Positions 44,690 through 45,903 of a stretch of 64,000 bases of DNA are shown one piece after another. The position numbers and the translations under genes are program-made. The notes below the pieces were generated by a model that did not search any database, was not told the DNA's origin, and was given only the letters and a program-made list of their open reading frames with translations. How positions within the stretch are numbered: position 1 is the stretch's first letter; every line of letters begins with the position of its first letter. The stretch is from an uncultured Erythrobacter sp. Its GTDB lineage: Bacteria; Pseudomonadota; Alphaproteobacteria; Sphingomonadales; Sphingomonadaceae. The stretch covers positions 676,688 through 740,687 of the forward strand of contig NZ_CANMPJ010000002.1 of assembly GCF_947499705.1 (NCBI RefSeq), read 5' to 3'.

Positions 44690-44736
44690 AAGCAAAGGAG
44701 CCGGGAAAGCGGCAGTTTTTGCGCTTCCCGGCTCCT
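44690..44736 (-). terminator. Terminator hairpin downstream of the 27-aa ORF
   Basis: aggagccgggaa..gcg / cgc.ttcccggctcct stem followed by UUGCUUU on the minus strand. Confidence 0.75.
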
Positions 44737-44763
44737 GGTTATTGGATTGCCTTAACGTCGGGG

Positions 44764-44847
44764 TCAGGCGATCAGCGAGTTGAATGAAACTGCGCTGATG
44801 CTGAGAGCAATGACGAACGAGATCGCCTTTTCAGTGAAGATGTCCAT
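44764..44847 (-). CDS. Small hydrophobic protein MDIFTEKAISFVIALSISAVSFNSLIA (27 aa), absent from the ORF track
   Basis: AGGAG 8 nt before ATG, one hydrophobic helix, terminator about 30 nt after the stop. Confidence 0.7.
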   Translation of the reverse strand: MDIFTEKAISFVIALSISAVSFNSLIA

Positions 44848-44997
44848 GTTTCGTACTCCTGTAATTCTGCGCGGCGGTGCGCCGTGCTCACAGGGACAAA
44901 TACGACCGCATGCGTAATACTGTTACTCTCCGATGCATGATGATTACCGATCAACGCAATCGCATAATCCGATCAACTATCTTCTAATTGGGTGATT

Positions 44998-45335
44998 GAG
45001 ACGCGGCCACCTGTTGGGGGGGGAGGACTGTGGTGGCCGCGTCTCGCTCGCTGCGTCGCCGGTGGTGGAGGGTTGATCCCAATACGCTCATCCGGGCGTA
45101 TCGAACCCTCGGCCCGAAAGCTGGGCCATGTCACCATATCGAGGCCCTCAGCGTGGGGGAGACGCTGAATGTGCGATCAAGCGAGCGGGGGAAGGCGCTG
45201 GAACACCTTGCTCACAATCAGATCGCCGGGCCGCGCTTCGGCGGTTAGCAGGCTGGCAAGCCCATCGCCGCTGTTGCGGTCTTGAACTGCCAAGCGACAA
45301 GGGTCGGCTGGAGAGAGGTGCCTGAACCCGTGTCG
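44998..45335 (-). ncRNA. Candidate structured RNA with several C-rich hairpin loops
   Basis: Stems at 44998-45045 (14 bp perfect), 45068-45110, 45148-45168, about 45180-45199 and 45295-45335; no convincing ORF; strand inferred. Confidence 0.45.
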
Positions 45336-45437
45336 TGAGAGCCAAATGGTGTTCTGTTGCATCGAACGCAAATGCGAAAATGCGCAGTTTGGTTGCGTTT
45401 TTTGCAACTCACATTCCATGTGCGGGTGGAGCAACGC

Positions 45438-45521: not shown

Positions 45522-45855
45522 TTAGTTGGCGGCAACCTGACGGCCGCCGCGTGCATCAGTAGCTGCAATACGCTCGGCTTCGTTCAGCGCGGCGGTGCGA
45601 GCTTCGGCGACGCACTTTTGATCCACGATGTCGCGGCCATAGCCATAGCGCGAGTTGGTTTCGATGGTGCAGGCATCGCGCAGACGGGCTTCGACGCGCT
45701 TTTCGAGTTTCGCACGACCTTCGGCAGTGGAAAGGTCGATGTCGCCATAGGCGATCGAAACGGTGATGGTCTTGTCAGCGGCCAGCGGCCAGCGGTGCAG
45801 CAGCGACAGGTGCAGCGACAGCGGCAAGGGCAATAAGGGGAAGGGTGAAACGCAT
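45522..45855 (-). pseudogene. UrcA-family secreted protein, frameshifted by a 7-bp tandem duplication
   Basis: Signal peptide MRFTLPLIALAAVAAPVAAAPLAA is out of frame with ADKTITVSIAYGDIDLSTAEGRAKLEKRVEARLRDAC...C; 334 nt = 327 + 7. Confidence 0.85.
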
Positions 45856-45903
45856 GATCTGAAACTCCAGTTGTAATTGTGCGACGCACAAGATCATTGT
45901 GCA

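Follow-up and report, generated by a model that had tools for sequence, protein, structure and literature searches.

Several described bacterial RNAs display C-rich sequences in the loops of hairpins. The cuckoo RNAs, which range over Rhodobacterales and Rhizobiales and are often located beside a DUF1127 gene (PMC4615179, PMC8034643), are composed of two to four adjacent hairpins joined by linkers of at most 10 nt, each of them carrying CCUCCUCCC in its loop (PMC4615179). Among these, the CcsR RNAs are derived from the transcript of the DUF1127 gene ccaF1 (PMC8034643, PMC4615179). GsrN of Caulobacter, recognizable by an EcfG promoter and by its position at the GSR locus, uses a C-rich 5′ loop to pair with G-tracts, for instance in the katG leader, and Erythrobacter litoralis has no apparent gsrN-like gene (PMC5869019). 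The 6C RNA of Actinobacteria (RF01066) is characterized by hairpin loops with runs of at least six C (PMC6486639).

The element considered here lies in a gene-poor gap of 660 nt within a 64,000-nt stretch of DNA of an uncultured Erythrobacter sp. (the window). An initial annotation had flagged positions 44998-45335, whose sequence and coordinates are as it described them, as a possible analogue of cuckoo/alpha-r14-type RNAs. The likeness stands as far as a covarying array of C-rich loops is concerned, but does not extend to family membership. Similarly to the cuckoo RNAs (CcsR1-4/RSs0680 of Rhodobacter; alpha-r14/NfeR1 of Sinorhizobium), the minus-strand RNA of this locus is an alphaproteobacterial modular hairpin array with a conserved C-rich anti-Shine-Dalgarno (anti-SD) loop motif, covarying stems and physical linkage to a small-protein gene. 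Differently from them, its loops read CCUCUCUCC / CUCCCCCC / CCUCCCCCCC and not CCUCCUCCC, other helices (P2, P3) stand between its C-rich hairpins, which are thus not simply adjacent, it has a near-invariant 3′ hairpin, the family measures 240-390 nt and occurs in Sphingomonadaceae, beyond the reported cuckoo range, and the linked microprotein is without a DUF1127 domain. The Infernal/Rfam scan that the initial annotation had suggested was run on the region and on 20 relatives, and no family was matched: the Rfam 15 covariance models gave no hit at the gathering score and none of relevance at E ≤ 10 on the region, and at E ≤ 1 the relatives yielded nothing relevant to cuckoo and nothing usable. 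Adjacent CCUCCUCCC hairpins, a match to the Rfam model and the DUF1127 neighbourhood or taxon range of cuckoo RNAs are all missing here.

The comparison with GsrN rests on an exposed poly-C loop, the presumed seed, for which G-rich targets would be expected. However, the RNA described here is much longer, has several C-rich loops and is not found beside a phyR/ecfG locus, its neighbours being urcA/guaA and an acyl-CoA synthetase gene. The EcfG promoter GGAAC-N16/17-CGTT is not conserved in the upstream alignment, and neither of the two GsrN-like features, EcfG promoter and GSR-locus neighbourhood, is present. C-run hairpin loops are also shared with the 6C RNA (RF01066), the only Rfam model with a weak match. 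This match was obtained on a relative (L017), where it covers hairpin T and the neighbouring hairpin with 35.9 bits, below the gathering score of 47 bits; the window itself gave none. Since the match is sub-threshold, and phylum, size and architecture differ, we regard this likeness as convergent. By analogy, the RNA most likely works in the manner of the C-rich-loop sRNAs (cuckoo/CcsR, GsrN, 6C), outside any described family. It represents a real RNA family, not catalogued before, whose putative function is plausible.

Locus, spread and anatomy of the minus-strand RNA

On the minus strand, the UrcA-family gene urcA is followed by a palindrome and a conserved box, then by the flagged stretch, the microprotein gene ORF-b and a gene for an SPW-repeat membrane protein (Table 1). 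The UrcA-family gene matches TIGR04433 with E = 1e-11 (window 45522-45897, minus strand), and its signal-peptide start (ATG near 45897) is seemingly out of frame with its body (ORF 45522-45833). The initial annotation had placed the element upstream of guaA and proposed to compare the syntenic regions of relatives. The guaA neighbourhood is indeed kept there, together with a conserved and covarying structure, but in the window urcA stands between guaA and the element, which is for this reason not immediately upstream of that gene. In genomes having the urcA insertion, the box travels with the RNA and not with guaA.

Table 1. Features of the locus and of related loci (window positions unless oriented loci are named).
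Feature	Position	Strand	Remarks
guaA	46038-47612	plus	flanks the block
UrcA-family gene (urcA)	45522-45855	minus	canonical terminator
Operator-like palindrome GTTGCA-N5-CGCAAC	45392-45408	minus	precedes the box by about 12 nt
Box TTTTCGCATTTG(C)	45368-45380	minus	near-invariant in 90 loci
Proposed non-coding RNA, long class, ~350-370 nt	44995-45365	minus	fold, covariation, no conserved reading frame; putative ends
Hairpin A	45296-45334	minus	MFE fold; loop ACCUCUCUCCA at 45309-45319
Hairpin P3	45253-45294	minus	MFE fold; apical AACA loop (GCCGAACACGGC-type); helices 4 and 5 covary
Long-class insert, UUCCAG-loop hairpin	45181-45213	minus	MFE fold; CUUCCCCC internal loop (45187-45194) alongside
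Hairpin M	45147-45169	minus	MFE fold; loop CUCCCCC (45155-45161)
Single-stranded motif GCAGCGAGC	45046-45054	minus	conserved; directly 5′ of hairpin T
Terminal hairpin T	44998-45045	minus	perfect 14-bp stem GAGACGCGGCCACC/GGUGGCCGCGUCUC; 20-nt loop with UCCUCCCCCCCC
Promoter-like GTAACA-N18-TATTTG upstream of ORF-b	44897-44926	minus	candidate, read from oriented relatives
ORF-b, 27-aa hydrophobic microprotein MDIFTEKAISFVIALSISAVSFNSLIA	44772-44855	minus	AGGAG RBS
Intrinsic terminator of ORF-b	44697-44737	minus	canonical; GC stem and UUUGCUUUAAAA
Acyl-CoA synthetase gene		plus	flanks the block
ORF-a in L128, L130-L133, L136, L137, L140, L143, L153, L155, L156	~1400-1490 in oriented loci		

Its own genome contains the 400-nt stretch only once, which rules out a dispersed repeat or REP, one of the outcomes that the initial annotation had named as fatal to its proposal. 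BLAST searches against 40 relatives returned matches in same-genus genomes only (19 of 24), always near guaA. In these matches hairpin T and the upstream box formed two conserved blocks on either side of a middle of variable sequence; on the minus strand, this middle forms in every species two to five hairpins having CUCUCC or CUCCCCCC loops. A pattern scan for hairpin T using one genome per species gave 105 contigs, nearly all of Erythrobacter/Porphyrobacter and some of Pelagerythrobacter, Altererythrobacter, Parerythrobacter and Qipengyuania. The element is present in about 100 Erythrobacter/Porphyrobacter species, and covariance model R1, which describes hairpin T, matched 46 of the 401 genomes sampled from the family, belonging to 14 of the 112 genera covered.

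The MFE fold of the minus strand between 44980 and 45350 has an energy of -164.7 kcal/mol (z = -5.59), and none of 100 shuffled sequences folds as well; the plus strand reaches a z-score of -1.64 in the shuffle test. The consecutive stems previously reported for this ORF-poor stretch are confirmed, because the fold exceeds that of the shuffles, the C-rich loops can be placed in it and such hairpins are rare. Genome-wide (3.67 Mb), just 58 hairpins combine a stem of at least 7 bp with a C5+ loop, two of them lying here within 150 nt, and G/C runs of eight or more number just two, one being the C8 of the T loop (G8 on the plus strand). Of the four C-rich minus-strand loops listed initially, those of A, M and T are indeed hairpin loops, whereas CUUCCCCC forms an internal loop or bulge in the MFE fold.

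The RNAs fall into two size classes, one of about 245 nt that comprises the majority and one of about 350-390 nt that includes the window and has extra helices. The core of the hairpin A loop, CUCUCUCC, is kept across species, and a ACUUCCAG-loop hairpin is also found in the long-class relatives L006, L011 and L017. Hairpin M is kept in 25 long-class sequences, where its stem shows compensatory changes, and its short-class counterpart carries a CUCCCCCC loop. The motif GCAGCGA is near-invariant in 87 sequences and is present in ORF-containing genera too. The loop motif within the stem of hairpin T can also be written GUCCUCCCCCCCC / ACAGUCCUCCCCCCCCAACA / CCUCCCCCCCC. As had been remarked in the initial annotation, no canonical U-tract terminator occurs at either minus-strand end. 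Hairpin T is the probable 3′ end, or a terminator without U-tract; since it lacks a U-tract in most species, the 3′ end of the RNA is uncertain, and in L144 a U-run comes after T.

The palindrome, situated just downstream of the urcA terminator, recurs in the form TTGCA-N5-YGCAA in every relative that was aligned and also in other genera. Its arrangement with TTTTCGCATTTG some 12 nt further on is conserved across 14 genera. In the window's own genome the palindrome alone occurs at 26 sites and the box, with one mismatch allowed, at 17, the combination being found only at this locus. The box may be promoter-proximal or may mark the 5′ edge of the RNA, and palindrome and box together presumably make up a putative transcription factor binding site. 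A scan of the region for sigma-70 consensus promoters found none, and promoters of the EcfG, sigma-54, FNR and MerR types were dropped owing to misfit of motif or spacing or to lack of conservation, as judged by eye from the alignment.

Covariation, strand and non-coding nature

Covariance-model alignments were used because helix registers shift between clades; MAFFT combined with RNAalifold recovered fragments of structure only from the full-length RNAs. The alignment of the 5′ module, comprising P2, hairpin A, P2b and P3, contains 56 sequences (54 distinct), with 91.3% of its cells paired and double-sided changes in 21 of 25 pairs, among them all six pairs of the hairpin A stem (helix 2 of the alignment). 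Double-changed cells number 108 vs 28 ± 5.7 in column shuffles (0/500), and the slid-partner controls were far below the observed value. Model R2, which describes this module, matched exclusively the C-rich strand, at 56 loci that include window 45253-45350 (minus).

A covariance model draws the alignments fitted to it toward its own structure, and selection by pattern biases that set for hairpin T; for these reasons unbiased sets are quoted for the strand. In 48 species gathered via BLAST or covariance model and not by exact pattern, hairpin T shows compensatory changes in 7 of 14 pairs, with 22 G.U vs 4 A.C when read on the minus strand, and helix P2 displays the same asymmetry. When T was removed, the bodies of 25 species had a mean z of -3.22 on the C-rich strand vs -1.58 on the opposite one, the former being lower in 20 of the 25 (Wilcoxon p = 5e-5). 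With a sequence as GC-rich as this one, a test for hairpins around the C-rich motifs gave only a modest difference between real and shuffled flanks. Note also that 7 of the 14 pairs in the stem of hairpin T have the same sequence throughout 14 genera, far more than pairing demands, which suggests that a protein partner or some other constraint may be involved.

The mechanically called ORFs of the flagged stretch do not keep their frame in relatives, where translated matches are broken up and hop between frames on both strands. In the short class, the longest closed ORF of the body has a median length of 16 aa, and body lengths are spread equally over the three mod-3 classes. A hidden CDS is ruled out by the short ORFs, the lack of mod-3 bias and the fragmented translated matches. 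The features generally expected of a structured non-coding RNA, namely covarying pairs, strand-specific stability and no conserved reading frame, are all found here, and on this comparative evidence the flagged stretch is a genuine, structurally conserved non-coding RNA gene of the minus strand in Erythrobacter and its relatives.

Microprotein genes and the origin of the RNA

An HMM for ORF-b detected this microprotein, absent from the current annotation, in 78 loci with the pattern M..SEKA.A....IS...FNT.IV. The differences between its copies at codon positions 1/2/3 amount to 17280/8295/22471, a coding-type bias. Its promoter-like element reads TTGAAA-N16-TATATG in most relatives. In most relatives, too, the 5′ UTR of ORF-b opens with a hairpin (hairpin 0) whose loop is CCCUCUCUCCCCCC; the window copy is without this loop.

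The same HMM detects ORF-a, by this measure a paralogue of ORF-b, which encodes 26-27 aa (e.g. MRTTASHFLAFVVAASISSLMLGAAIA) and occurs in Pelagerythrobacter, Altererythrobacter, Parerythrobacter and several further genera. Its loci have the order palindrome, box, hairpin A, AGGAGA RBS, ORF-a, GCAGCGAA and hairpin T. ORF-a is truly coding, because its differences at codon positions 1/2/3 (400/226/702) are biased and identical peptides arise from different DNA sequences. Searches of both microproteins against Pfam and NCBIfam returned no family match, and from sequence they constitute two families, each of 27 aa, that are unannotated and have no model in either collection. Type I toxin mRNAs (hok/tisB/aapA-like) combine a small hydrophobic peptide, a UTR structure that sequesters the SD and a cis-antisense antitoxin RNA. 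When ORF-a and ORF-b are compared with them, the 27-aa hydrophobic peptides and anti-SD loops are found, no antisense gene is evident, and across genera the locus is strictly syntenic and single-copy.

Intermediate arrangements are also found. In one genus (g19), some species have ORF-a before T and ORF-b after T and others are without ORF-a. A decayed remnant of ORF-a in L138, MRAASPALATVLLPHRTCNRQ, now contains a CUCCUCCC-loop hairpin, and another remnant is seen in L150. ORF-a has been lost repeatedly: it is missing from Erythrobacter and from three or more other genera, which gained extra C-rich-loop hairpins; only a distant relative from a genus without ORF-a (L152) has the canonical CCUCCUCCC loop. 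Conversely, an Erythrobacter species without ORF-b (L129) keeps the RNA. This comparison of genera defines promoter box, hairpin A and hairpin T as the conserved core and the ORF as dispensable. The RNA thereby appears to descend from the mRNA of a 27-residue membrane microprotein, and the Erythrobacter element reads as a non-coding derivative under selection as RNA. Tentatively, one may go further and picture an ancestral dual-function mRNA with two anti-SD-mimic hairpins that repeatedly shed its ORF and multiplied its C-rich loops, resulting in a multi-seed riboregulator or sponge in which T would be a handle for protein or ribosome contact rather than a mere terminator.

SgrS/SgrT, RNAIII/hld and SR1/SR1P are dual-function sRNAs. 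The sister-genus transcript would resemble them in carrying a microprotein ORF together with conserved C-rich regulatory hairpins. In the genus of the window, unlike in these systems, the ORF has been lost, and the RNA is for this reason purely non-coding; its regulatory role is putative. For an RNA akin to a microprotein mRNA, the closest parallels are the CcsR/ccaF1 arrangement and the dual-function sRNAs.

Possible modes of action and biological meaning

From these conserved features we infer that the minus strand is transcribed, that the RNA has the ends given in Table 1 and that it acts in trans on mRNA targets. The chances are about even that the window encodes a non-coding RNA of roughly 350 nt, of microprotein-mRNA origin, that functions as a trans-acting anti-SD riboregulator. 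A conserved operator and box promoter (45368-45408) would probably drive this RNA, which has its probable 3′ end in the near-invariant 14-bp hairpin T and would display three to four anti-SD-like C-rich loops: A (CCUCUCUCC), M (CUCCCCC) and T (CCUCCCCCCCC). ORF-a has been lost in Erythrobacter, with covarying helices and additional C-rich hairpins in its place, and the paralogous ORF-b is usually found just downstream of the RNA. The C-rich loops may pair with G-rich SD regions (GGGGGAG-type) of mRNAs and so alter their translation or stability, an action in trans that can be likened to that of CcsR/cuckoo, NfeR1, GsrN, 6C and RoxS/RsaE. In ORF-containing relatives, the loops may additionally have a cis effect on the microprotein message beside them.

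The seeds of sRNAs are typically their most conserved single-stranded parts, and the C-rich loops, which mimic the 16S anti-SD, are the most conserved single-stranded parts of this RNA. Extended SDs of the GGGGGAG type precede many genes of the genome, including those for TonB-dependent receptors and secreted or envelope proteins and rsmH. A genome-wide RNAduplex target scan was discarded as evidence, its start sites being crude and its results dominated by spurious ORFs and stem contributions. Outside the window, the genome encodes Hfq, a plausible partner of the RNA, as one 200-aa frame with two tandem Hfq domains (C1:1340258-1340683, minus strand). Cuckoo RNAs repress in trans by pairing with ribosome-binding sites and associate with Hfq; what the genome shows in this respect is an hfq gene and G-rich SDs. 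We also would like to point out a second candidate C-rich-loop sRNA of the same genome, likewise outside the window (C1:1631760-1631880, plus strand) and just downstream of another gene's terminator, which consists of a hairpin CAGGCGGU-ACCCCCCUCAUA-ACCGCCUG, a single-stranded ACCUCCCUGAACC and a canonical terminator CCACCUCGCGC...GCGCGGGGUGGUUUUUU.

SD-sequestering 5′ UTRs and the 5′-3′ fold-back of type I toxin mRNAs provide models for a different, cis-acting role, in which the element would be a leader co-transcribed with ORF-b (or ORF-a elsewhere) whose C-rich loops sequester the SD of the microprotein itself. The RNA is on the strand of ORF-b and close to it, hairpins A and T directly flank ORF-a in the sister genera, where a UCUCCU within the A loop complements the ORF-a SD AGGAGA, and ORF-b in most relatives has its own C-rich-loop 5′ hairpin; read-through is conceivable as well, because T has no U-tract. 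In L150, a hairpin GCGGCCCC-UCCUCCUCCC-CGGGGCCGC with a cuckoo-type loop lies downstream of T (~1610-1680 in the oriented locus), in the 5′ UTR of a secreted-protein (urcA-like) gene. Since C-rich-loop hairpins occur in such cis 5′ UTRs (ORF-b hairpin 0 and L150), the motif may primarily be a cis element. We nevertheless consider a cis leader unlikely at this locus: the conserved promoter-like element of ORF-b sits between T and ORF-b, the RNA is kept in L129, which has no ORF-b, and in genera without ORF-a, and the extra C-rich hairpins arose after the loss of the ORF.

An equally small probability is given to a decoy for protein, with the T stem and the C-rich loops binding a putative protein that would also bind the C-rich-loop hairpins of 5′ UTRs, according to a logic like that of CsrB but with a different protein. 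The invariance of the T stem beyond what pairing needs, the conservation of GCAGCGA, the recurrence of the loop motif in cis 5′-UTR hairpins and the larger number of C-rich loops in the non-coding versions are all consistent with it. On the other hand, no candidate protein is known, CsrA is absent, and mimicry of the 16S anti-SD alone accounts for the conservation of the C-rich loops.

That the element might be a remnant, devoid of function, left by the decay of a microprotein gene, with T kept merely as a bidirectional terminator between convergent genes, is decidedly improbable, although ORF-a remnants do persist in L138 and L150, in ORF-a genera T separates ORF-a from the acyl-CoA synthetase gene convergent with it, and L144 has its U-run after T. 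A relic would not be expected to keep covarying helices in a non-coding body across some 50 to 90 species, strand-specific fold z-scores and a conserved promoter box, nor to acquire new conserved C-rich hairpins. Finally, a plus-strand RNA whose G-rich, GGA-containing loops sponge CsrA/RsmA, the alternative put forward in the initial annotation, with a weak plus-strand terminator-like site found in the promoter/terminator scan (45382-45405) in its favour, can practically be dismissed, as a PF02599 search with positive controls showed CsrA to be absent from this 99.99%-complete genome and the G.U/A.C asymmetry, the z-scores and the covariance-model matches favour the minus strand, opposite to what a CsrB/RsmZ-type sponge would require.

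The trans-acting anti-SD riboregulator outlined above would be of interest for an understudied group of organisms, which are abundant in marine and fresh waters as aerobic anoxygenic phototrophs and heterotrophs. A literature search on the genus Erythrobacter found no described riboregulator. As a candidate regulator the locus is conserved and easy to delete. Its seed motif is obvious, and its presumed targets form a class that lends itself to testing, namely mRNAs with GGGGGAG-type RBSs, many of them for TonB-dependent receptors and secreted proteins. The evolutionary history of the RNA is unusually legible. Coding, decaying and purely non-coding versions coexist in the family, so that comparison can directly test the descent of an sRNA from a small-protein mRNA. 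If the view of a dual-function RNA that sheds its ORF is true, these versions would constitute a natural series showing how an mRNA becomes an sRNA.
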